Numbered from the stretch's first letter, positions 14,105-24,745 are shown. The stretch is 32,000 nucleotides of DNA from Xylanibacter ruminicola 23 (GCF_000025925.1 NC_014033.1:1320001-1352000); one strand, 5' to 3'. Translations and numbers: made by a program. The notes: generated by a model not told the origin, from the letters alone.

Positions 14105-15451
14105 ATGGTGACATTCTTGGTTATTTTACAACTGTTTATCGTATTGGCCCTTATATTTATCGGCGCCAGGGTTGGTGGAATCGGACTGGGCATCTACGGT
14201 ATGGTGGGTGTGTTCATACTCGTGTTTATCTTCGGCATGCATCCCGGCAAGGTACCCATTGATGTGATGCTGATCATAGCATCGGTAATTACGGCTACGG
14301 CGGCGCTGCAGGCTGCTGGTGGCTTGGATTACATGGTAGGATTGGCAGCCAGGTTCCTGCGTAAGCACCCTACACACATTACTTATTATGGTCCGCTCAC
14401 CACCTGGTTGTTCTGCTTGGTAGCAGGCACAGCCCATACCTCTTACTCGCTGCTGCCTATTATCTCGGAGATTGCCAAGAATTCTAAGATACGTCCGGAG
14501 CGCCCCATGACGGTGGCCACCATCGCGGCCTCGTTAGGTATCACAGGTTCGCCCATGTCGGCGGCTACGGCAGCTGTTATATCCACCGACCTGCTTGGCG
14601 GACAGGGCATAGAACTGAAGGATATCCTGCTGGTGTGTATCCCAGCCTCGCTGATAGCCATCCTGGTGGCTTCGTTTGTGCAGAACCGTGTGGGCAAGGA
14701 ACTTGAAGATGATCCCGAATACCAGCGCCGTGTACGTGAAGGACTGATTGACCCGGAAGCCGAAGCCATGGCGATGGCACAGATGGAGCAGAGTCCCAAT
14801 CCACGTGCCAAGTGGAGTGTGCTGGCATTCCTGTTGGGCGTTGTGCTAGTGATTGTTTTTGGTAGCGCTCCTTCGCTGCGTCCATCGTTCGAGGTTGACG
14901 GCGTGGTTACCCAGCTATCGATGCCTGAGACCATCGAGATACTGATGATGTCGATGGCAGCAGTGATTCTGCTGGTTGGTAAGGCCAGTGTGAAGCAGGC
15001 TGTGAGCGGCAATATATTCAGTGCAGGTATGAATGCCATGATAGCCATCTTTGGTATTGCCTGGATGGGCGACACCTTCTTTAATGGCAACCTGGAGTTC
15101 TTTAAGAGTCACATAGCCGACGTGGTAACACAGTATCCGTTCCTGTTCAGCGTGGCCCTGTTTATCATGAGTATCATGCTGTTCTCGCAGGCAGCCACGG
15201 TACGCACGCTCTTCCCGCTGGGTATTGGCTTGGGCATTCCGCCATTGGCACTCGTGGCTATGTTCCCCGCTGTCAACGGTTACTTCTTCTTCCCCAACTA
15301 TCCTACCGAGGTGGCAGCCATCAACTTTGATACCACGGGTACTACCCGTATCGGCAAGTACGTGCTTAACCACTCGTTCCAGCTTTCGGGCTTTATCACC
15401 ACTTTTGTGAGCATTGGCGTAGGCTATCTTATTATAACATTCCTATATTAA
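14105..15451 (+). CDS. dcuB: Anaerobic C4-dicarboxylate transporter, DcuA/DcuB family
   Basis: 448 aa. FIGARVGGIGLG, IRPERPM and FDTTGTTRIGKYVLNHSF match the Dcu family signatures, closest by eye to E. coli DcuB. Promoter TATATTTG upstream near 14056-14063. Confidence 0.9.
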   Translation: MVTFLVILQLFIVLALIFIGARVGGIGLGIYGMVGVFILVFIFGMHPGKVPIDVMLIIASVITATAALQAAGGLDYMVGLAARFLRKHPTHITYYGPLTTWLFCLVAGTAHTSYSLLPIISEIAKNSKIRPERPMTVATIAASLGITGSPMSAATAAVISTDLLGGQGIELKDILLVCIPASLIAILVASFVQNRVGKELEDDPEYQRRVREGLIDPEAEAMAMAQMEQSPNPRAKWSVLAFLLGVVLVIVFGSAPSLRPSFEVDGVVTQLSMPETIEILMMSMAAVILLVGKASVKQAVSGNIFSAGMNAMIAIFGIAWMGDTFFNGNLEFFKSHIADVVTQYPFLFSVALFIMSIMLFSQAATVRTLFPLGIGLGIPPLALVAMFPAVNGYFFFPNYPTEVAAINFDTTGTTRIGKYVLNHSFQLSGFITTFVSIGVGYLIITFLY

Positions 15452-15874: not shown

Positions 15875-18154
15875 TCACAGAGGCAGTCCAAGTTGCTGAT
15901 ATTCAGCCGCTTCGTCGTCATCCGCCTCTTTAAATTCAAAGTTAAAATCTTCGGAGGCAATATATACTTGCTGATGGTCGAGCGGGATTTCAACAACCTT
16001 AAAGAAGTTGCCATTACGCTTATGCATGCTTTCATATCCCAGTTCGAGCATAATATCCCCTATCTTACGATTTGAGAAAAAGTTATTATGCCTGCCATAG
16101 TTTAAAAACAGGTTTATCATCTGCGAACTCATCAATTGATAAGGTTCATTCTTCTTTGGCTTGCGCAAACGTATCACAATCATCTGCTCTTCGGGGCTGA
16201 TAACCCTGAAAGGCTCGTTAAGTTGCTTTACACGCTTCTCGTCGGCTTTCGAAAAGTAATACTTAAACCCCTCATAGTACTCCTTTTGTAGCTGAGCATA
16301 CAACTGTGCGTAATCGATGGTCCACTCAAACGGACTGTCAATCTCGCTTAACTTAAAGCAAAGCCATCGCCGGTTACCGGTTGCATCTGTCAATATCTGT
16401 TGCTCGTTGGTTGATGCGCATAGCGAGGCTAAACGTGGTTTCTCCTCACGTGCGCGACCATATACAGGGCGCTCTTTTATCTTATCGGCAGTAACCAATG
16501 CTTTCAATTTAGCCAGCTCCGTTCCCTCAAAAGCCGACACCTCCTCGAGCTCTATCACACAGTGCTCCTGCATAGCTATACGATCGTCTTTCTGCGATAC
16601 AGAGTTGGTGCGGTTCTCCATAAAATAGGATTGGAGCTGTGGTGGCAGCAGATGACGGAAGAACTCGGTTTTATACTTTCCCTGCGGACCAACGAGCGTA
16701 AAAATACAGTGATTCATTACACGGTCGTCGAGCCATGTGCCCACCGCAGCCACCATCCATTTATGAAAAGCCCAGTGCATGGCCTCCTGTGCCTCCTTGT
16801 CGGTCATATCCGGTGTGGCCGAAACAGCATGGATATGGTCGGATAGCTCTTTCACACGGTCGATACCATCCCACTCAGGTAGCAGCTTCATATATTGTCG
16901 GATGGGATGCACTTTCAGCGCAAAGTCGCTTTTATAAACAGCCCTCAGATGTTTCTCCTCTACACGCTTTCCTGTATCAAGTTCTATCTGATACATGCGG
17001 GTGTTTATCTCTACATCATCAACAGGTTGCCATTTGTCGGATGTTAATGGCGGCAACGAAGAAATCAGGTCATCATCATCATCCCCATCAGTTTCGGCGA
17101 TATCATCCCTCGAGCACCATAGCAAGGCGTTGGTTAATATATTAAAGCAGCACACGATACGTTCGGATAGCCATTTTCTTATTTCGGGCAGTGTCATCAG
17201 TACGTTACCGCGTGGTTTCTCCATCCCGGGCAGGCGCCAGGTGCCATGCAGTGCTTCCTTTTTATAGCAATGACTGATGGCCCTGTCGCGCTCTTTCTTT
17301 GTGTGGTCGCGCCACTCTACATCGGCAAACTTCACAAGCTCGTCTTTCGGCACACCGTAACGGTTAAACAGGTAAGCGGCATGCAGTATGTAATCGTGAT
17401 GGTGACCAGGCTCATAGCGTATCTGTTTCTGCGACAACTGCTGCTCGATATGTTGCCACGCCTCTTCAGCTTTTACCTCGAACGATTTAGCATCGTAAAC
17501 CTTACGGGGACGGCCGTGTTCCTGATGCTCGCAGTTCTGTTCCACTATCATATCGTCGGAAATAACGAAAGGTACGGCCTGCTCGTTAAAATACACATCG
17601 GGATCGCCAGCCAAACACGACAAGCGTGTAAAATCGCTGTTGGCCTTATCGTAAGGGTGCTGTGCCACGGCAGCCAGATACTCATTACCCTTGATAAAAG
17701 CGCCCTGCCACGAGGTATCATCGATACGTTTTCCACCCTCGCGCTCGTAACAATAGATGATGTGCAAACCTAATCCGCCTATCGAGCGATACATCAACAG
17801 TACATGCGGATCCTTGGAGAGCCGCTCGATGGCGGCCTCCAATTCTTCCACACTCTCAAAATGATCGATATCACACAGGGCAAGCCTCGTCCATCCACAG
17901 GCCTGCGCCGCACTATGTCCTAACCCACTAAAATTTACTGCCACACCAAAGGCAGGCTGCAGTTGCGATTTGATATAACTATCAGCCTGCTTTTTGCCCA
18001 TCGCTGCCATTGTTTTACGATAGCTAACGGTATTGGCGGCAACAATTTTATCGTAACGTATAAAGTGTACAATCTCATTTAGAGTTTTAAGTACGTTAGA
18101 GTAGCTTGTATGGTTAGCAAATAGTGATACCTTTAGTTTGTTAATATCCATCAT
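15875..18154 (-). CDS. VirE-N/primase-helicase protein (BT4734-like N-domain + VirE/VapE P-loop domain)
   Basis: 759 aa. The N-terminus has the Bacteroides VirE_N/primase-like region. The C-terminal half has Walker A GPQGKYKT and the NRRWLCF motif characteristic of the virulence-associated E (PF05272-like) family. Confidence 0.85.
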   Translation of the reverse strand: MMDINKLKVSLFANHTSYSNVLKTLNEIVHFIRYDKIVAANTVSYRKTMAAMGKKQADSYIKSQLQPAFGVAVNFSGLGHSAAQACGWTRLALCDIDHFESVEELEAAIERLSKDPHVLLMYRSIGGLGLHIIYCYEREGGKRIDDTSWQGAFIKGNEYLAAVAQHPYDKANSDFTRLSCLAGDPDVYFNEQAVPFVISDDMIVEQNCEHQEHGRPRKVYDAKSFEVKAEEAWQHIEQQLSQKQIRYEPGHHHDYILHAAYLFNRYGVPKDELVKFADVEWRDHTKKERDRAISHCYKKEALHGTWRLPGMEKPRGNVLMTLPEIRKWLSERIVCCFNILTNALLWCSRDDIAETDGDDDDDLISSLPPLTSDKWQPVDDVEINTRMYQIELDTGKRVEEKHLRAVYKSDFALKVHPIRQYMKLLPEWDGIDRVKELSDHIHAVSATPDMTDKEAQEAMHWAFHKWMVAAVGTWLDDRVMNHCIFTLVGPQGKYKTEFFRHLLPPQLQSYFMENRTNSVSQKDDRIAMQEHCVIELEEVSAFEGTELAKLKALVTADKIKERPVYGRAREEKPRLASLCASTNEQQILTDATGNRRWLCFKLSEIDSPFEWTIDYAQLYAQLQKEYYEGFKYYFSKADEKRVKQLNEPFRVISPEEQMIVIRLRKPKKNEPYQLMSSQMINLFLNYGRHNNFFSNRKIGDIMLELGYESMHKRNGNFFKVVEIPLDHQQVYIASEDFNFEFKEADDDEAAEYQQLGLPL

Positions 18155-18276
18155 TTCAATAACTTTTTATAGCGTTTATAACTGCGCAGTATGGTGTTAA
18201 CCCGTTTGCTGCAAACAGGATTATCAGCCAGATTGGTAAACGTGGCCAGAATAACAGCCAGTTTACGCTGTGAGCA

Positions 18277-18504
18277 TTATAAACCATTAGGCTGAGTGGT
18301 TGCCTTTACCAAAAACTTATACACATCGCCTTTACTTATGAGCTTAAAATCAAACTCAACCCTAACTAATTGGTCGGGGTTACTCTGACTATAAACCTCA
18401 TTGATAGCTATAGCCAATTGATCGAGCGAAGCACGCAATTTATGCATATCACTGGGATACACAATCCCATAAAGAGAGTATTCCCTCTTTTCAATTTTGT
18501 TCAT
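18277..18504 (-). CDS. Hypothetical small protein
   Basis: 75-aa ATG-initiated ORF directly upstream of the primase on the same strand. No recognisable motif. Confidence 0.45.
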   Translation of the reverse strand: MNKIEKREYSLYGIVYPSDMHKLRASLDQLAIAINEVYSQSNPDQLVRVEFDFKLISKGDVYKFLVKATTQPNGL

Positions 18505-18842
18505 ACTTGTTTTTATTTTTTTATTCTACAATCCGTGTGCCTGAGGTCGTCAGTCAGCACACACCATTAACCGATAAGTAGAATCTATCAGTCGGGTGAA
18601 TGTTCGAATCTGGCGCCCATCTCAAGGAAAGCCTTCCATGAAGCTGAGCCGGGGTGAATGTTCTTAGTTATTATCATCTATATATCTGTTTTTAATGTTA
18701 TTGTTACACGCAAAGTTAACAACAAGAAATGAATCTTGCAAATTATTAGGGACGTTTTTATTAAAAACATCCCTAAAACCTGCAAATTGTTGTACCCACG
18801 GCCCAATTTTGATGCTAAAAAGCAAGAAAAACGCCATTTTTC

Positions 18843-19215
18843 TTTGATTATTGTCCGCTTTTAACTACCTTTGCAAACGATCGCCGGCACATACCATAGT
18901 GAAAGGCTACGGGTAGGCGAACTCTGTTCGGGAATGGTGCCGGTGTGACTTTTGTGGGTAAATAAATAACAGCATTAGCTGATTATTCGGTACATCTTGA
19001 AACCTAGGAAATTTCACAGATTGAACAACCGATGATTAGTCACTGATGTCTGCGTCGTATGGCGTGGACATGACTTATCTGGTTGTTCGGGCTTTCCTAG
19101 GGCCTCAAGATGTAGATAAGGCGGTTCACGCTTTTTCTATGTCTTGCGGTCCCATTAGTTTAGCCCGTGTAAATCCCGATAAGTCGGCAGTGCTATAAAC
19201 CGAATAATAGCAACT
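18843..19215 (+). promoter_or_regulatory. Promoter plus about 335-nt highly structured 5' leader of the MmeI-like gene
   Basis: TTTG 18843-18846, then a 19-nt spacer, then TACCTTTG 18866-18873. Hairpin 1: GCCGGCAC 18883-18890 with GTGCCGGT 18937-18944, followed by gtgacTTTTg. Hairpin 2 is a 122-nt imperfect hairpin (18992-19113) with more than 30 bp: ACATCTTGA/TCAAGATGT, CCTAGGAAA/TTTCCTAGG, GAACAACC/GGTTGTTC. A long-range 10-bp helix pairs ATTATTCGGT 18982-18991 with ACCGAATAAT 19199-19208 and ends 7 nt before the ATG at 19216. Confidence 0.55.
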
Positions 19216-21987
19216 ATGACCGACAAACAACAGTCAGCCGCCGCTGCAGCCTTTGCTGAGCGGTGGAGAGGCAGAGGGTATGAACGGGGTGAATCACAGT
19301 CATTCTGGATTGACCTCCTGAGCAACGTGTATGGAATCGATACACCTACCAATGGTTTTATCACTTTCGAAGACCATCAGATGGTGGATAGCTCAAACTT
19401 TATCGATGGTCGCATACCATCCACCAAGGTGCTTATCGAACAGAAATCACTGGGTAAGGATTTGCGTAAAGGCATCCACCAAAGCGATGGTTCGCTGCTT
19501 AATCCATTCCAGCAGGCACGCCGCTATGTGGTGAGTCTGCCTGTATCCGAACATCCACGATGGATTGTCACCTGCAACTTCTCAGAGTTTCTGGTTTACG
19601 ATATGGAGCAGCCCAATGGCGAACCCGAACAGATACTACTTGAGAATCTAGGAAAAGAATACTATCGCCTGCAGTTTTTGGTAGATGCAAAGAACGACCA
19701 CCTGCGTAAGGAGATGGAGGTATCGATGCAGGCAGGCGAAATAGTGGGTCGCATCTACGAGGCACTGCTCAAACAATATGATGATAACTCTACCGAGGCC
19801 CTGCGATGGCTAAACATCCTGTGTGTGCGCATCGTATTCTGCTTGTATGCCGAAGATGCAGGAATTTTCAGTCACGACCAATTCCATGATTTTCTGGTAA
19901 CTTACGAGGCCAAGGACCTTCGCCGTGCACTGCGCGATTTGTTCGAGGTTCTAAATACCCCTAAAGAGCAACGCAGCAAATACCTGCAGGCAGAACTGGC
20001 TGCATTCCCATACACTAATGGCGGACTGTTTGCTGAAACCATCGAGATACCGCAGTTTACCGATGAGCTGAAGCAGACACTGCTGCAGAATGCCAGTCTG
20101 GATTTTGACTGGAGCGAAATCTCCCCCACTATATTTGGTGCCGTATTTGAGAGTACGCTCAATCCTGAGACGCGTCGCAGTGGTGGTATGCACTACACCT
20201 CGATAGAGAATATCCATAAGGTTATCGATCCATTGTTCTTGAACGACCTACGTGCTGAACTCGATGAAATATTGGATGAGAAAGTTGAGAAGCAACGCGT
20301 TCGAAAACTCGATGCCTATCAAGACAAGTTAGCATCGCTCACCTTCCTGGATCCTGCCTGCGGCTCAGGTAACTTCCTGACCGAAACCTACCTGAGTTTG
20401 CGCCGATTAGAGAACGAGGCTATCCGTTCTAAATACCACGACCAAACCATGATAGGTGCATTTATGAACCCCATCAAAGTGAGCATCCACCAATTTTATG
20501 GTATCGAGATTAACGACTTTGCTGTAACCGTAGCCACAACAGCTTTATGGATCAGCGAGGCTCAGATGATGGCTGAAACAGAGAAAATAGTAACCTTTGA
20601 AGATAACTTTCTGCCTTTAAAAAGCTACTCAAATATCCACGAAGGCAATGCCCTCCGCACCGATTGGGAAACCGTAGTACCCAAATCCCACCTTACTTAT
20701 ATAATAGGTAACCCACCGTTTGTGGGAGCTAATATAATGAATGATAATCAAAGAGCTGATATAAGGTCCATTTTTGGTAGTAAATGGAAGAACATCGGTG
20801 AAATGGACTATGTAACAGGATGGTACTTGAAGGCAACTCAAATGATGCATGGAACAGATATACGTACGGCTTTAGTTTCGACAAATAGCATATCACAAGG
20901 AGAACAAGTTGCCAATCTATGGAAACCACTCTTTGAAGAAGGTGTTCACATAGACTTTGCCCATCGCACATTTCGCTGGGATAGTGAAGCATCACTTAAA
21001 GCACATGTTCACTGCGTAATTATAGGATTTAGCTGCACGAACGATAAACATACAATGACCATTTACGACAATGCAAAGGAACATAAAGCATCAAACATTA
21101 ATGCATATTTGATGGATGCCCCAAATGTATTTGTCGAGAGTAAGAGCAAACCCTTATGTAGGGTACCTTCTATTCGTAAAGGCAATCAACCTACTGATGG
21201 TGGTAATCTTATAATAGAAGCAGCTGATCTTGAAAACTTTCTTGCTTGTGAACCAAAATCAAGAAAATTTATAAAACGCCTAATTGGATCAAAAGAATAC
21301 ATAAACAATAAAGCAAGATACTGTCTTTGGCTTAAAGAAGCAACACCTGCAGAATTAAGGCAGATGCCAACAGTTCTTAACCGCATAGAAGGCGTGCGGA
21401 AAATGCGAGAATCAAGTAGTGACGAAGCTACTCGCCGTCTTGCCAATTATCCTCACTTATTCCGTGAGACGAACAACCCTGAAACGTACATCGTAGTTCC
21501 CAGCGTCTCTTCTGAGCGTCGTCGTTATGTTCCAATGGGATTTCTTACCAAAGACACCATTCCTACCAACCTCGTTTTAATTATACCTGATGCAACTTTA
21601 TATCATTTCGGTATTCTTGAAAGTAATGTTCATATGGCTTGGATGAGAGCTGTATGTGGACGATTAGAAATGCGATATCGATATTCCAAGGATGTTGTTT
21701 ACAACAACTTCCCCTGGCCTACTCCAACAGAAGAACAAAAAGAAAAGATAGAGCAAACGGCCCAGGCTATCTTAGATGCCCGTGCCCTCTACCCCGACTC
21801 TTCTTTGGCCGACCTCTACGACGAGCTAACCATGCCCGTTGAACTCCGCAAAGCCCACCAAGAGAACGACCGCGCCGTCATGGCAGCTTATGGTTTCCCC
21901 ATCAAGACCACGACCGAAAGCCAGTGTGTAGCCGAGCTGTTCAAACTATATCAAGAACTTACAAACAAAAAACCAATAACGATATGA
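19216..21987 (+). CDS. Type IIL/IIG single-chain restriction-modification enzyme, MmeI family (endonuclease + gamma-class N6-adenine methyltransferase + TRD)
   Basis: 923 aa (MmeI is about 919 aa). The N-terminus AAFAERWRGRGYERGESQSFWIDLL is typical of the family. PD-(D/E)xK-like motif FIDGRIPSTKVLIEQK (D-x10-E-x-K). MTase motif I LDPACGSGNFL lies upstream of motif IV IIGNPPFVG. Long C-terminal TRD/helical region. Confidence 0.85.
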   Translation: MTDKQQSAAAAAFAERWRGRGYERGESQSFWIDLLSNVYGIDTPTNGFITFEDHQMVDSSNFIDGRIPSTKVLIEQKSLGKDLRKGIHQSDGSLLNPFQQARRYVVSLPVSEHPRWIVTCNFSEFLVYDMEQPNGEPEQILLENLGKEYYRLQFLVDAKNDHLRKEMEVSMQAGEIVGRIYEALLKQYDDNSTEALRWLNILCVRIVFCLYAEDAGIFSHDQFHDFLVTYEAKDLRRALRDLFEVLNTPKEQRSKYLQAELAAFPYTNGGLFAETIEIPQFTDELKQTLLQNASLDFDWSEISPTIFGAVFESTLNPETRRSGGMHYTSIENIHKVIDPLFLNDLRAELDEILDEKVEKQRVRKLDAYQDKLASLTFLDPACGSGNFLTETYLSLRRLENEAIRSKYHDQTMIGAFMNPIKVSIHQFYGIEINDFAVTVATTALWISEAQMMAETEKIVTFEDNFLPLKSYSNIHEGNALRTDWETVVPKSHLTYIIGNPPFVGANIMNDNQRADIRSIFGSKWKNIGEMDYVTGWYLKATQMMHGTDIRTALVSTNSISQGEQVANLWKPLFEEGVHIDFAHRTFRWDSEASLKAHVHCVIIGFSCTNDKHTMTIYDNAKEHKASNINAYLMDAPNVFVESKSKPLCRVPSIRKGNQPTDGGNLIIEAADLENFLACEPKSRKFIKRLIGSKEYINNKARYCLWLKEATPAELRQMPTVLNRIEGVRKMRESSSDEATRRLANYPHLFRETNNPETYIVVPSVSSERRRYVPMGFLTKDTIPTNLVLIIPDATLYHFGILESNVHMAWMRAVCGRLEMRYRYSKDVVYNNFPWPTPTEEQKEKIEQTAQAILDARALYPDSSLADLYDELTMPVELRKAHQENDRAVMAAYGFPIKTTTESQCVAELFKLYQELTNKKPITI

Positions 21988-22022: not shown

Positions 22023-22054
22023 TTTGGAAGTTTCAAAATATCTTCCTATCTTTG
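22023..22054 (+). promoter_or_regulatory. Promoter of sRNA copy A
   Basis: TTTG 22023-22026, 20-nt spacer, TATCTTTG 22047-22054. The spacer contains the palindrome GGAAG (22026-22030) / CTTCC (22042-22046). Confidence 0.7.
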
Positions 22055-22059
22055 CAGCG

Positions 22060-22190
22060 TGAAAGGTGGAACCAAGTAGAGCCACGATGTGCGGAACGGT
22101 GGCATCTGTGTGATGATGAGCAATTCGACCTTGCCGCTTGGTTTCATAAACATAGCGCCCATCACTCAATCGAGGGATGGGCGTTTTCTA
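22060..22190 (+). ncRNA. Structured sRNA, copy A (cloverleaf/tRNA-like hand fold), unclassified family
   Basis: Starts about 6 nt after the -7 box. Ends at a terminator: CGCCCATC 22156-22163 with GATGGGCG 22176-22183, followed by TTTT. About 95% identical over the core to copy B, apart from a variable hairpin and compensatory terminator changes. Closing helix ACCAAGT 22071-22077 with GCTTGGT 22136-22142. Inner hairpins GCCAC/GTGGC (22081-22085 with 22099-22103) and CATC-tgtgt-GATG (22103-22115). A third hairpin, GCAA-TTCGACC-TTGC (22120-22134), has a T-loop-like heptaloop. Confidence 0.65.
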
Positions 22191-22638
22191 TTTTCACATA
22201 TCGCTTTCCATTAAATTCCTTCTTATCTATACGACGTGTTGCCGTAATGAAGTTTACAAGCTTTACCTGTTCGCGATTTACTTTCATTTTATAGTTCGGA
22301 TGAATGATGAATTTGGAAACTTCGTCGGTATAGATGAAGCATTCGCCATCGTAGTATAGATCCATCTTAAATCGGCTTTTGGGAAAACGCACAAGTTCCT
22401 CAGCTGAAACAACCAGTCCCTTGGCACCTTTTGAGGCACGCATGCAATGCTGTAACTGTTTAGCGCTCATATATAATTGCTCGCAAGCCAACTTTATGCC
22501 ATTGTTCTGAGCAAACTGCACCATTCTCTGTTCCACATCACCGATACTAAACGGCTGTATAGCAGAAAAACCTTTCTGCTCTATATCAATCAAAACAGCT
22601 GTGATCTGTTCTTCTATCGTTGGTTTATCTGATTCCAT
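22162..22638 (-). CDS. Hypothetical protein (158 aa), convergent with and overlapping the terminator of sRNA copy A
   Basis: ATG at 22636-22638. Own minus-strand promoter TATCTTTG at 22663-22670. The last 7 sense codons plus the stop lie inside the sRNA terminator hairpin. No family recognised by eye. Confidence 0.6.
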   Translation of the reverse strand: MESDKPTIEEQITAVLIDIEQKGFSAIQPFSIGDVEQRMVQFAQNNGIKLACEQLYMSAKQLQHCMRASKGAKGLVVSAEELVRFPKSRFKMDLYYDGECFIYTDEVSKFIIHPNYKMKVNREQVKLVNFITATRRIDKKEFNGKRYVKIENAHPSIE

Positions 22639-22804
22639 ATACTTTCTTAAGCAAATCGCCTACAAAGATAAGACTTTATTTTAAACCCAACAAGCATATA
22701 GGCAAAAAACAAGAAAAAAATCCACGATGTGCGGTGCTCGTCCCAGACTTCCGAAATATCATCGAAGGTCGCAATAAGTTGGTCTTCTTCATGAGGATCA
22801 CATT

Positions 22805-22845
22805 CCCCCTAAAGCGCATCTCTTTCTTAGGGAATAATGAATAAT
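22805..22845 (+). repeat. Intergenic 40-nt repeat, copy R1 (CCCCC-TAAAGCGCATCT-n-TTCTTAGGGAATAATGAATAA)
   Basis: One of three near-identical copies (22805-22845, 24028-24067, 24506-24545), all in the same orientation. It contains the internal inverted repeat CCCTAA...TTAGGG. Stop codons in R2 and R3 exclude a conserved reading frame. Confidence 0.75.
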
Positions 22846-22847
22846 AA

Positions 22848-22883: not shown

Positions 22884-23876
22884 TTATTTATCTTCACCAT
22901 GCAACCACTGCCACTTCCATGTTGCCATACGTTCCAAATCAGGTGAGAACTGGATGATATTGCCATCGCGAGAAACATAGCCTAAATCAATAGCCAATTG
23001 CAAATCTTTATCGTAATCATTATAGCTTTCCCATCTAGCTTTCTTCATAGCCATCACAAAGTCGTCGTAAAAACAGCGACCTTTTCCTATCTTTTCCAAA
23101 CAACATAACAGGTGATAAACAAGTTTGCCATTTTCCCCGCTCTCAACATAGTTGCCATAAAGCTTCGCCAACTCAATTAGTTCGTTAACCTGCAGCTGAT
23201 AGTCGGCATACCCGTCTTTCAGCTTGATATTCTCAAAGGTAACACCAACTTCATCCCAATTATTAATCTGACGCCATAATCCACTTAAAACTTCTCGTGG
23301 AGATATTATTAATTCGTCACTATTCCATATATTTACTTTCAAAGCAATATCTTTTCTAACCTCCAAATAATAACTTTTGCTATCATTATCGCCATAATAA
23401 CATTTGATATCGCCTTCAACTTCCTTCATCTTGCAGTTATCGGCTAGATTAATTTTTAATCCTGTCATCATTATTCTTTTAATAATGCTCTTCATTGGCA
23501 GATATCCATCAGAGCAGAACAAATCCATCCATCCAATCTTGACTAATTTGTCCTTCCCGATGGTGTCACCAACAAAGCCTAAGAAGATCGGGTCACTTAT
23601 CATAGGCCCCATATCATCAGGTATATAGCAATGCTCAAAGTCAAGCATATATTCATTCGGCATACGGTAAACAGCTTTGCTTTCGAAACACATTTTACCC
23701 TCCTCGTTCACTTTTCCTGTTAGCATAGTACCTATCAACTGCGCAATAGTTGTAAACGGGCCTTCATAAACGAAAGCATAGACCGCATAGGGCTTTTCTG
23801 CGGGTACGTAATGACTCTGATAATTTGCTCCCTGAACCGTAATTGGTCCTGAGTAATGATTGTGAATTTGATCCAT
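22884..23876 (-). CDS. Hypothetical protein (330 aa), possible C-terminal winged-helix
   Basis: ATG at 23874-23876. Minus-strand promoter TACCTTTG at 23926-23933. Terminator directly after the stop. The C-terminal segment KLVYHLLCCLEKIGKGRCFYDDFVMAM...LAIDLGYVSRDGNIIQFSPD looks wHTH-like. The N-terminal domain is not recognised. Confidence 0.6.
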   Translation of the reverse strand: MDQIHNHYSGPITVQGANYQSHYVPAEKPYAVYAFVYEGPFTTIAQLIGTMLTGKVNEEGKMCFESKAVYRMPNEYMLDFEHCYIPDDMGPMISDPIFLGFVGDTIGKDKLVKIGWMDLFCSDGYLPMKSIIKRIMMTGLKINLADNCKMKEVEGDIKCYYGDNDSKSYYLEVRKDIALKVNIWNSDELIISPREVLSGLWRQINNWDEVGVTFENIKLKDGYADYQLQVNELIELAKLYGNYVESGENGKLVYHLLCCLEKIGKGRCFYDDFVMAMKKARWESYNDYDKDLQLAIDLGYVSRDGNIIQFSPDLERMATWKWQWLHGEDK

Positions 23877-24027
23877 AATTTGGTTTATTTTTATTTAGTA
23901 ACTTATGTATTTGTAATTGCGCTTGCAAAGGTACTAAAAGTTTTTTAAACTCAGCATTAAATAAGAAAAAATATATCCTAAAATAGGACATGTTTTTTAG
24001 TCACCTACATCTCTTCATTAAGAGCTT

Positions 24028-24067
24028 CCCCCTTAAACACATCTAGTTCTTAGGGAATAATGAATAA
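24028..24067 (+). repeat. Intergenic 40-nt repeat, copy R2
   Basis: CCCCCTTAAACACATCTAGTTCTTAGGGAATAATGAATAA, followed as in R1 by a homologous terminator hairpin. Confidence 0.75.
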
Positions 24068-24070
24068 AAA

Positions 24071-24182: not shown

Positions 24183-24392
24183 TCATAAATAACGCTCTAT
24201 TGTTTTAGACATACTTTTACGAGAATGACTTAGAAATGCGTTTCTAAGTTCTCTATGCGCTTCCACTTCATCAGGCTTAGGCTCGTAAGGAATATGTTCC
24301 TTTTTAGCGAATAGCCCTGTGGCAAGTAAAGCGGCTAACTTACGCCTTGCTAGAGCGTTGTTTGGATTGTATTCTAATGTTATGGTGCACAT
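24183..24392 (-). CDS. Hypothetical small protein (69 aa)
   Basis: ATG at 24390-24392. MCTITLEYNPNNALARRKLAALLATGLF... resembles small Bacteroidales accessory-region proteins. No assigned function. Confidence 0.5.
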   Translation of the reverse strand: MCTITLEYNPNNALARRKLAALLATGLFAKKEHIPYEPKPDEVEAHRELRNAFLSHSRKSMSKTIERYL

Positions 24393-24505
24393 AATTGTAT
24401 GTATTATTTGAATTTGGGTGCTAATATAAGGATTTATTTTATATAAACAAAGTAATTATTCAAAAAAATGACAATAATCGAGAGTTAACCCTCCTGATAG
24501 AAACT

Positions 24506-24545
24506 CCCCCTTAAGCGCATCTTGTTCTTAGGGAATAATGAATAA
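24506..24545 (+). repeat. Intergenic 40-nt repeat, copy R3
   Basis: CCCCCTTAAGCGCATCTTGTTCTTAGGGAATAATGAATAA. It lies directly upstream of the promoter of sRNA copy B. This copy has no terminator hairpin. Confidence 0.75.
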
Positions 24546-24566
24546 AAGCATTTTTCTTTAAAAATA

Positions 24567-24598
24567 TTTGGAACTTTCAGAAAGAGTTCCTATCTTTG
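24567..24598 (+). promoter_or_regulatory. Promoter of sRNA copy B
   Basis: TTTG 24567-24570, 20-nt spacer, TATCTTTG 24591-24598. Spacer palindrome GGAAC (24570-24574) / GTTCC (24586-24590), which is the compensated version of the copy A palindrome. Confidence 0.7.
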
Positions 24599-24603
24599 CA
24601 GCG

Positions 24604-24745
24604 TGAAAGGTGGAACCAAGTAGAGCCACGATGTGCGGAACGGTGGCATGGCTGCAGCAATGCAGAGATGATGAGCAATTCGACCTTGCCGCTTGGTTTC
24701 ATAAGCATAGCGACCATCACTTGTTTGAGTGGTGGTCGTTTTTAT
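24604..24745 (+). ncRNA. Structured sRNA, copy B
   Basis: Same core as copy A (24604-24650 and 24667-24710). The variable arm is replaced by CTGCA-GCAA-TGCAG (24652-24665, with a GNRA loop). Terminator CGACCATCACT 24711-24721 with AGTGGTGGTCG 24728-24738, followed by TTTTT. Confidence 0.65.

Follow-up and report, generated by a model that had tools for sequence, protein, structure and literature searches.

A gene for a structured small RNA (sRNA) was found in the genome of Xylanibacter ruminicola 23, in a stretch of 32,000 nucleotides (GCF_000025925.1, NC_014033.1:1320001-1352000) that is called the window here. Judged from its sequence, this is a genuine small RNA gene, predicted to be transcribed on its own, which consists of about 90 nt and a terminator in this genome. 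The ~90-nt core is present twice on the plus strand, as copy A (22062-22152) and copy B (24606-24707), which differ solely in the middle arm, where B has an 11-nt insertion at the tip and a few adjacent substitutions. The RNA family is new to Rfam 15 and to the searchable literature, and it belongs to none of the nearest known systems. The conserved partner of the sRNA is a 158-residue protein encoded convergently with it, not the Schlafen-like protein encoded nearby.

The promoter of copy A (22023-22054, plus strand), which was read from the sequence, comprises a −33-like TTTG at 22023-22026 and the −7 box TATCTTTG at 22047-22054. The TAnnTTTG −7 motif is established for sigma-A promoters of Bacteroidetes, and such a box lies 8-25 nt 5' of the covariance-model start in 14 of the 16 copies examined. 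Transcription would start at approximately 22058-22062, and the predicted transcript of copy A (22058-22190, plus strand) contains the four-way-junction core, matched by the covariance model at 22062-22152 with 105.5 bits, followed by a terminator. Copy B occupies 24591-24745 on the same strand when its promoter is included (88.9 bits), with the −7 box at 24591-24598 and a predicted transcript of approximately 24602-24745. Both terminators consist of a G+C-rich hairpin and a U-run (22154-22190 for A and 24709-24745 for B); that of copy A, drawn from RNAfold, overlaps the last codons of the convergent open reading frame (ORF) by 29 nt. The terminator hairpins of homologous chromosomal copies vary in sequence and keep their pairing, that is, they covary. 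Members found in phages have a U-tract directly 3' of the closing helix P1, so that P1 appears to double there as the terminator stem.

The minimum-free-energy and centroid structures obtained with RNAfold predict a four-way junction for both copies. In copy A, whose elements all lie on the plus strand, the closing helix P1 pairs 22066-22077 with 22136-22147, or 22065-22076 with 22137-22148 in the family register, and it measures 12 bp in all 20 homologues as well as in RNAfold. An earlier note on this DNA, which contained a fold drawn by hand, had described a 7-bp closing helix of acceptor-stem length; its strands ACCAAGU (22071-22077) and GCUUGGU (22136-22142) do pair, and they are contained in the 12-bp P1. 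All of the sequence elements that the note listed for copy A are present where it placed them, and copy B keeps them with an 11-nt insertion in the middle arm, its UCA ending at 24701 and not at 24700. P1 is followed by the linker J1/2 (AGA, 22078-22080; NAGA when 22077 is included), of which AGA is invariant family-wide. The D-arm-like hairpin P2 (22081-22103) is formed by GCCAC (22081-22085) and GUGGC (22099-22103) closing the 13-nt loop GAUGUGCGGAACG, which contains GG. The D-like character proposed for this arm is retained in the loop, which is 13-17 nt long across the family and keeps GG within the conserved motif GAU..GG.AA, while just three pairs of the stem, GCC/GGC, hold family-wide, and these are invariant. 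The next arm, P3 (22104-22114), is short and variable, with AUC (22104-22106) paired to GAU (22112-22114) around the loop UGUGU; it is longer and capped by a GNRA tetraloop in copy B and some homologues, and the absence of a 7-nt anticodon loop from the middle arm was correctly noted. The 5-nt linker J3/4, GAUGA (22115-22119), is found as GAUGA and variants in the family and takes the position of the tRNA variable loop.

The last arm, P4 (22120-22134), is composed of GCAA (22120-22123), UUCGACC (22124-22130), and UUGC (22131-22134), and its earlier reading as an arm with the T-loop consensus holds, since it is a bona fide T-arm with a loop of the form NUCRANN in 20 of 20 homologues. The first base of this loop is U in 16 of the 20, the variants being UUCGACC, UUCGAUU, UUCAAAU, GUCGAUA, UUCGAAU, and CUCGAAA. 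The P4 stem covaries in three of four pairs, for example to GUGG/CCAC, GCAG/CUGC, and GGUA/UACC, and in locus L042 the first of two sRNA units has a 5-bp textbook T-arm, GUGGG-UUCGAUU-CCCGC, which cmscan aligns to the T-arm of transfer-messenger RNA (tmRNA). This arm does not immediately abut the closing helix, as had been thought, but is separated from it in the family register by two bases, C and G, which constitute J4/1 (J4/1 and the P1 3' strand, 22135-22147); G22136 can wobble with U22077 in the window's own fold. The following U-UCA, formerly likened to the N-CCA end of a tRNA, pairs with the upstream GUGGA, and homologues read UUCUU, UUCCU, CUCAC, and CACAA at this site. Because the closing helix has 12 bp and the tail sequence varies, U-UCA is paired and no analogue of N-CCA, and the fold offers no free 3' end. 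The conserved unpaired positions are NAGA of J1/2, GAU..GG.AA of loop 2, the 5 nt of J3/4, CG of J4/1, and NUCRANN of the T-loop. The corresponding parts of copy B (plus strand) are P1 at 24610-24621 with 24691-24702, P2 at 24625-24647, an extended P3 with a GCAA tetraloop at 24648-24669, J3/4 at 24670-24674, the T-arm at 24675-24689, and the terminator given above. As a side observation, the RUGAUGA of J3/4 (22109-22119) gave weak matches to C/D-box small nucleolar RNA models, and together with the invariant AGA of J1/2 (22078-22080) it could make sheared G-A pairs, forming a junction core like that of a kink-turn.

Single-sequence thermodynamics gave z-scores of −1.35 for the 91-nt core and of −2.8 and −4.0 with the terminators. 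Since this support from one sequence is modest, the fold must be tested comparatively. Folded singly, diverged homologues adopt this junction too (z-scores of −4.0 and −3.3). When 12 sequences were aligned with MAFFT, the paired cells made up 94.8%, a value reached by none of 500 shuffles (0/500) and compared with 35-49% when the partners were slid, and two-sided changes were observed in 16 of 24 pairs. RNAalifold independently recovers the same helices, and the check by RNAfold and RNAalifold on the copies and homologues that the earlier note had in view thus returned the same four-helix junction. When 20 sequences were aligned on the covariance model R1, 96.8% of the cells were paired against 36-50% with slid partners, and 18 of 22 pairs showed two-sided changes, in an alignment that was fitted to R1 and is therefore biased toward the structure. 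By helix, the two-sided changes in the 20 homologues fall in 12 of 12 pairs of P1, three of three of P3, and three of four of P4, the 3-bp core of P2 (GCC/GGC) being invariant. The G-U cells number 48 and the A-C cells one, for which reason the fold is assigned to the promoter-bearing strand. We regard this covariation as the decisive evidence for the predicted structure. Conservation lies in the loops and junctions and variation in the helices, a pattern that indicates a specific three-dimensional shape and its recognition, not mere antisense pairing.

The RNA is not a tRNA, as it lacks both the acceptor end and the anticodon arm and matches no tRNA or tmRNA model. The tRNA-like cloverleaf of the earlier note is borne out as a four-way junction, which covariation confirms, but it is neither a tRNA nor a known tRNA mimic. 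What it shares with tRNA is the four-way junction, in which the closing stem is followed in order by a D-like arm, a middle arm, a 5-nt linker, and the T-arm, the NUCRANN T-loop (with a G-C closing pair in several sRNA homologues), GG in the first loop, and comparable junction linkers (4, 0, 5, and 2 nt versus 2, 1, 4-5, and 0 nt in tRNA). It differs in the 12-bp closing helix with no free 3' NCCA, in a middle arm of 3-6 bp having a 4-5-nt loop and no anticodon, in a first loop of 13-17 nt, and in a T stem of usually 4 bp, and it is missed by ARAGORN at default settings and by the tRNA model of Rfam. At E ≤ 10, Rfam returned no full-length match, whether to tRNA, tmRNA, or another family, for the window, the 98-nt core, or the homologues. 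The tmRNA model gave a local 17-nt T-arm match alone, which scored 10-13 bits where the gathering score is 47, and ARAGORN called no tmRNA. A search with ARAGORN, as the earlier note envisaged, found no tRNA gene at default settings in the window and nine loci, whereas its relaxed calls were enriched over shuffles. At the 80% threshold, six of 20 members were called versus four of 400 shuffles, and at the 70% threshold there were 21 calls on both strands, covering about 18 of 20 members on the sense strand, versus 24 of 400 shuffles; the calls made at 70-90% of the threshold are all sub-threshold, and the arms they draw differ from the covariation model. A tRNA-like elbow made by the GG loop and the T-loop is plausible from the sequences. 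Both of its partners are invariant, so that no covariation between them is possible, and the first loop has the variable length given above.

Homologues were collected by several routes. A scan of viral DNA led to locus L001, where the closing helix is altered in a compensatory manner and a homologue of the 158-residue ORF, with 55% identity, lies convergent with the RNA. A protein-based search with contig comparison located the sRNA at the same place in each context reached by the contig sequence, and the sRNA core was 100% identical across loci having 70-90%-identical proteins and differing terminators. Deeply diverged members (L039-L043) were obtained by a metagenome scan that excluded the common variant, and a protein-guided scan of IMG/VR gave 10 further viral contigs, all of which (10/10) matched R1 with 23-53 bits. 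A looser viral DNA pattern retrieved mostly unrelated sequence and a single true new member, L072. The pattern scan of GTDB representative genomes used TGATGAGNNNNTTCGA in place of the true TGATGANNNNTTCGA; all 15 of its matches arose by chance, and it is uninformative on presence or absence there. The plasmid and phage GenBank collections contained no blastn match to the sRNA, Rfam 15 gave noise only, both at the gathering threshold and at E ≤ 10 (window, 98-nt core alone, and homologues), and a literature search by sequence string and keywords found no description of the sRNA in the searchable literature. Two candidate identities were discarded. A hammerhead ribozyme, considered for the CUGAUGA present in some homologues, was rejected, there being no GAAA after the stem and no Rfam match, and the FopS sRNA family of Bacteroides was dropped, its biology being unrelated in the accessible part of its description, which concerns the regulation of polysaccharide-utilization loci and SusC.

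The gene of the 158-residue partner protein (22162-22638, minus strand) is convergent with copy A, and its product is identical to WP_041385806.1 of Xylanibacter (Prevotella) ruminicola. Among the loci retrieved with the protein, the sRNA lies on the opposite strand at the stop codon in every one of the 14 loci, from six distinct chromosomal or metagenomic contexts, whose sequence reaches that far. It likewise abuts the stop codon on the opposite strand in 10 of 10 further viral contigs with 41-50% protein identity, and the pairing persists at a protein identity of 34% (L041). Orphan sRNAs occur, and the partner protein without the sRNA was never found among the loci retrieved. The rumen metagenome contigs L039, L040, and L043 have an intact sRNA with its promoter, beside which the last 46 partner codons alone remain, and L042 contains no partner gene within the 2.4 kb of sequence examined. 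A remnant of the partner gene of copy B is recognized at 24747-24835 (minus strand) from repeat D4 and the ORF translation; it retains the promoter, the 5' untranslated region, and the first ~15 codons (MESDKPTVEEQI..., 24747-24794), fused to the sRNA terminator. The duplex energies between the sRNA and the 5' untranslated and start region of the partner gene were no better than those of shuffles.

The 158-residue protein has no Pfam, NCBIfam, PADLOC, or PHROG match. Its AlphaFold2 model is confident (predicted local distance difference test score of 89) and represents a soluble α/β protein, for which no fold match was found in the PDB. The structural relatives of this model are all phage proteins, and remote ones: uncharacterised proteins, the N-termini of ~1000-residue "nuclease" proteins, and a "minor capsid protein". 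The family forms 297 clusters at 50% identity and more than 980 at 90%, nearly all of single-domain proteins of 150-190 residues, and in the longer proteins fused to this domain the fusion partners contain no Pfam domains. In the phage-like L042 mentioned above, the minus-strand regions 372-497 and 543-732 comprise two non-identical tandem sRNA units and, ~40 nt further on, a third RNA of ~125 nt bounded by a promoter and a terminator; this third RNA has no Rfam match and a z-score of 0.67, no better than shuffles.

The earlier note had paired the sRNA with the 1244-residue AlbA_2/Schlafen-like protein encoded at 24961-28695 (plus strand), of which ~140 residues alone match a known domain. This tempting link is unsupported and is corrected here. 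In 11 loci of five contexts that encode 57-73%-identical homologues of the 1244-residue protein, no sRNA was found within 4 kb by the covariance model at E ≤ 10 (0/11), and the 158-residue homologue is absent from the four of these loci that were checked. Copy B adjoins the 1244-residue gene because its own partner gene was deleted to ~15 codons. The 1244-residue protein itself belongs to a large, well-conserved Bacteroidales family of ~1230 residues, whose neighbours (L044-L054) vary: Endonuclease_NS followed by a 163-residue ORF, DUF6088, and AbiEii; a PF06580 His_kinase-like protein with AAA-ATPase_like/PDDEXK_9; and a LexA-like with an ImuB-like protein.

The sRNA family is a backbone element of siphovirus-like phages of Bacteroidales in the gut and rumen, and the two-gene module has spread into chromosomal islands, including that of Xylanibacter ruminicola. 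Most of the phage contigs examined have the gene order PAPS_reduct, ParB-like (or DUF4417), partner, sRNA (opposite strand), TerS, TerL (Terminase_3), and SPP1-type portal. The genes terS-terL-portal follow directly downstream of the pair in L001, L060, and L065 according to Pfam and in L056 according to ORF size; in L057, by exception, the sRNA is followed by a PAPS_reduct gene. In L060, the ~50 nt between the sRNA start and the terS ATG contain no TAnnTTTG box for terS, from which terS is probably transcribed by read-through across the antisense strand of the sRNA. The chromosomal modules border defence genes, namely AlwI and Dam methylases, SNF2-PLD with an MmeI-like enzyme, T5orf172 with a type IIG enzyme, NmeDI, AAA_21, and an MNT-like nucleotidyltransferase. 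L029, L031, L032, and L033 share one and the same protein, sRNA, and 190-nt spacer, the spacer bearing a TAnnTTTG promoter that faces outward, and the cargos after this identical module differ (SNF2-PLD/MmeI-like, T5orf172/type IIG, and NmeDI across L029-L033). The module seems to mark a defence-gene hotspot. The island in the window lies between dcuB (14105-15451) and a GH43 gene (28812-29831), and no integrase was seen in the window. The same island encodes, within 15875-21987, a VapE/BT4734-like primase of 759 residues (minus strand) and a complete MmeI-family type IIG/IIL restriction-modification enzyme of 923 residues (plus strand).

The gene, its structure, its conservation, and its linkage were obtained directly from these comparisons, and what we infer from them concerns protein-RNA binding and function. 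We tentatively propose, at a little less than an even chance, that the sRNA is a dedicated partner of the ~155-residue protein and would act as its structured ligand, cofactor, or antidote. The protein would need the RNA and would pair with it much as SmpB does with the tRNA-like domain of tmRNA, or a type III toxin with its antitoxin RNA, and the antisense overlap at the 3' ends would couple the expression of the sRNA and the partner gene. This proposal is made because invariant loops and junctions accompany covarying helices, and because the RNA persists alone and the protein is never alone. Several points weigh against it. Both the RNA binding by the 158-residue protein and the expression of the two genes are predictions from sequence, and the protein has no recognisable toxin-like or RNA-binding domain. 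The isoelectric points of the partner family (median 9.1, range 5.8-10.4) are uninformative and mildly basic. The fixed core position beside the phage packaging genes is no less compatible with a part in phage development (regulation or packaging) than with an addiction module. A read-through transcript of the phage operon would be fully antisense to the sRNA, as in a purely antisense or terminator role, and the linkage could partly come from one shared bidirectional terminator. A bolder version, which we consider rather unlikely as a whole, is that a phage RNA derived from tRNA lost its anticodon arm and acceptor end and joined a protein of new fold to make a ribonucleoprotein switch, which would gate the packaging-gene boundary in phages and the defence hotspots in islands, with the RNA as an obligatory antidote or cofactor. 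If true, such a module of RNA and protein, serving addiction or regulation, would form a new class.

Whether the sRNA acts instead as a cis-antisense RNA or a bidirectional terminator-insulator was also weighed. Lambda OOP RNA acts on cII by duplex-dependent decay, and a similar decay of the partner mRNA might be brought about here, and read-through into the terminase operon or the island cargo might be stopped or processed, the fold contributing mainly stability. The convergent arrangement with 3' overlap in all loci, the probable reading of terS in L060 through the antisense of the sRNA, and the A-run and U-run that flank P1 in the manner of a bidirectional terminator are consistent with this. 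Such a role would not need conserved loops, however, yet the junction and loop nucleotides and the T-loop are invariant while the helices covary, and the asymmetry of G-U over A-C cells reveals selection on the fold of this strand only. Moreover, the separate terminator of the chromosomal copies limits the overlap with the mRNA to just ~29 nt, orphan copies stay intact without the partner gene, and the complementarity to the partner 5' region does not exceed that of shuffled controls. We hold an antisense or terminator role to be unlikely.

A mimic or decoy of tRNA, whose elbow would be recognized by RNase P, TruB/TrmA, or the ribosome or would soak up tRNA nucleases, including the Schlafen-like neighbour, is decidedly unlikely. 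It draws on the T-arm consensus, the GG loop, and the cloverleaf topology, on the enrichment of relaxed ARAGORN calls over shuffles, and on the occurrence of the module in phages and defence islands, where tRNA-centred conflicts are common. Against this stand the missing anticodon arm and free acceptor/CCA end, the 12-bp P1, the lack of a tRNA, tmRNA, or other full-length Rfam match, and the absence of the sRNA from all 11 loci with 1244-residue homologues, and the strict coupling to the 158-residue protein would be left unexplained. It is more improbable still that the sRNA is a packaging RNA, in which case the RNA and the protein would work with the terminase and portal, as does the packaging RNA (pRNA) of phi29, or would mark the packaging site, and islands would carry the pair to hijack the packaging of helper phages. 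Its fixed position directly upstream of terS-terL-portal in L001, L060, L065, and L056 would suit such a role, as would the remote structural matches of the partner to a "minor capsid protein" and to the N-termini of large virion-type proteins, and the VapE/BT4734-like primase in the window island; many chromosomal copies, however, have no phage or satellite genes nearby (L018, L024, and L034), no pRNA model matched, pairing of loops between RNA molecules was neither sought nor observed, and the idea is speculative. The probability is very slight that the conserved 70-bp core serves at the DNA level as an att-like recombination or integration anchor for the exchange of cassettes and defence cargo, with an incidental RNA fold. 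In favour of this are the tandem and decayed copies, the cassette-like genes that separate A from B, and the four different cargos after the same module in L029-L033. Against it, compensatory changes with 48 G-U cells and a single A-C cell are typical of an RNA and not of a site in duplex DNA, a promoter and a terminator belong to the gene itself, and no recombinase is linked.

Known systems of RNA and protein are comparable in part with the sRNA and its proposed protein partner. tmRNA with SmpB likewise has a tRNA-like module devoid of an anticodon arm, a canonical T-arm (to which unit 1 of L042 aligns), and a dedicated protein of ~155-160 residues. The sRNA differs in having no acceptor/CCA end, mRNA-like domain, or pseudoknots, the partner has no fold match like SmpB, and the sRNA resides on phages and islands and is not a housekeeping RNA. 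YrlA with Ro60/Rsr is also a non-coding RNA with a T-arm and D-arm mimicking tRNA and a protein partner, and is sometimes associated with phages, but the sRNA lacks the long Ro-binding stem and has no Rfam match at threshold, and no TROVE/Rsr domain match was found among the window ORFs scanned with Pfam. The type III toxin-antitoxin systems (ToxIN, CptIN, and TenpIN) resemble the pair in that a structured RNA is closely tied to a single protein gene, both being carried by mobile elements, phages, and defence islands, and in that the RNA can persist without the protein while the protein is not found without the RNA. Unlike their toxin-processed tandem repeats, the sRNA is a single unit (L042 alone having two non-identical ones), the two genes are convergent and not co-directional, and the partner matches no ToxN/AbiQ/CptN family in Pfam or PADLOC. 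A type I toxin-antitoxin system was rejected, as the partner is a predicted soluble α/β protein of 158 residues and the complementarity of the sRNA to its 5' untranslated region does not rise above shuffles. The cis-antisense RNAs of phages (lambda OOP, P22 sar, and P1/P7 c4) are similarly short and convergent and overlap the 3' end of a gene in a regulatory region; they are simple hairpins acting by base pairing, in contrast to the complex junction, invariant loops, and T-loop of the sRNA, and neither C4 nor any other Rfam model matched. With the sRNA, the few tRNA-like non-coding RNAs of bacteria would gain a well-supported structured family, which is abundant in Bacteroidales of the gut and rumen. 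Understanding what it does could bring to light a new RNA-protein mechanism of regulation or addiction in phage-host conflict, and the module could serve as a marker of defence hotspots in Bacteroidales.

Further traces of the module were recognized around the two copies. A decayed relic of another sRNA copy (22723-22800, plus strand) lies upstream of the partner-gene promoter and contains the 13-mer CCACGATGTGCGG, identical to P2/loop 2. Another relic, at 229-330 of L017, still keeps the P1 3' strand and the terminator, and the two relics suggest that modules occur in tandem arrays and are eroded by internal deletion. The DNA that separates the two sRNA copies contains two cassette-like ORFs of 330 residues (22884-23876, minus strand) and 69 residues (24183-24392, minus strand), each followed by its own strong bidirectional terminator. 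Neither has a significant NCBIfam, PADLOC, or PHROG match, and Pfam was null for the 330-residue ORF. A 43-nt direct repeat, TCCCCCTTAAGCGCATCT..TTCTTAGGGAATAATGAATAA, with the internal inverted repeat CCCTTAAG/CTTAGGG, occurs three times in the window (22804-22846, 24027-24069, and 24505-24547). Two of its copies stand just past the terminators of the cassette-like minus-strand genes and the third directly before the promoter of copy B, and L017 has the same repeat 5' of its B-type sRNA. The repeat may mark the boundary of a cassette or be a site of recombination.

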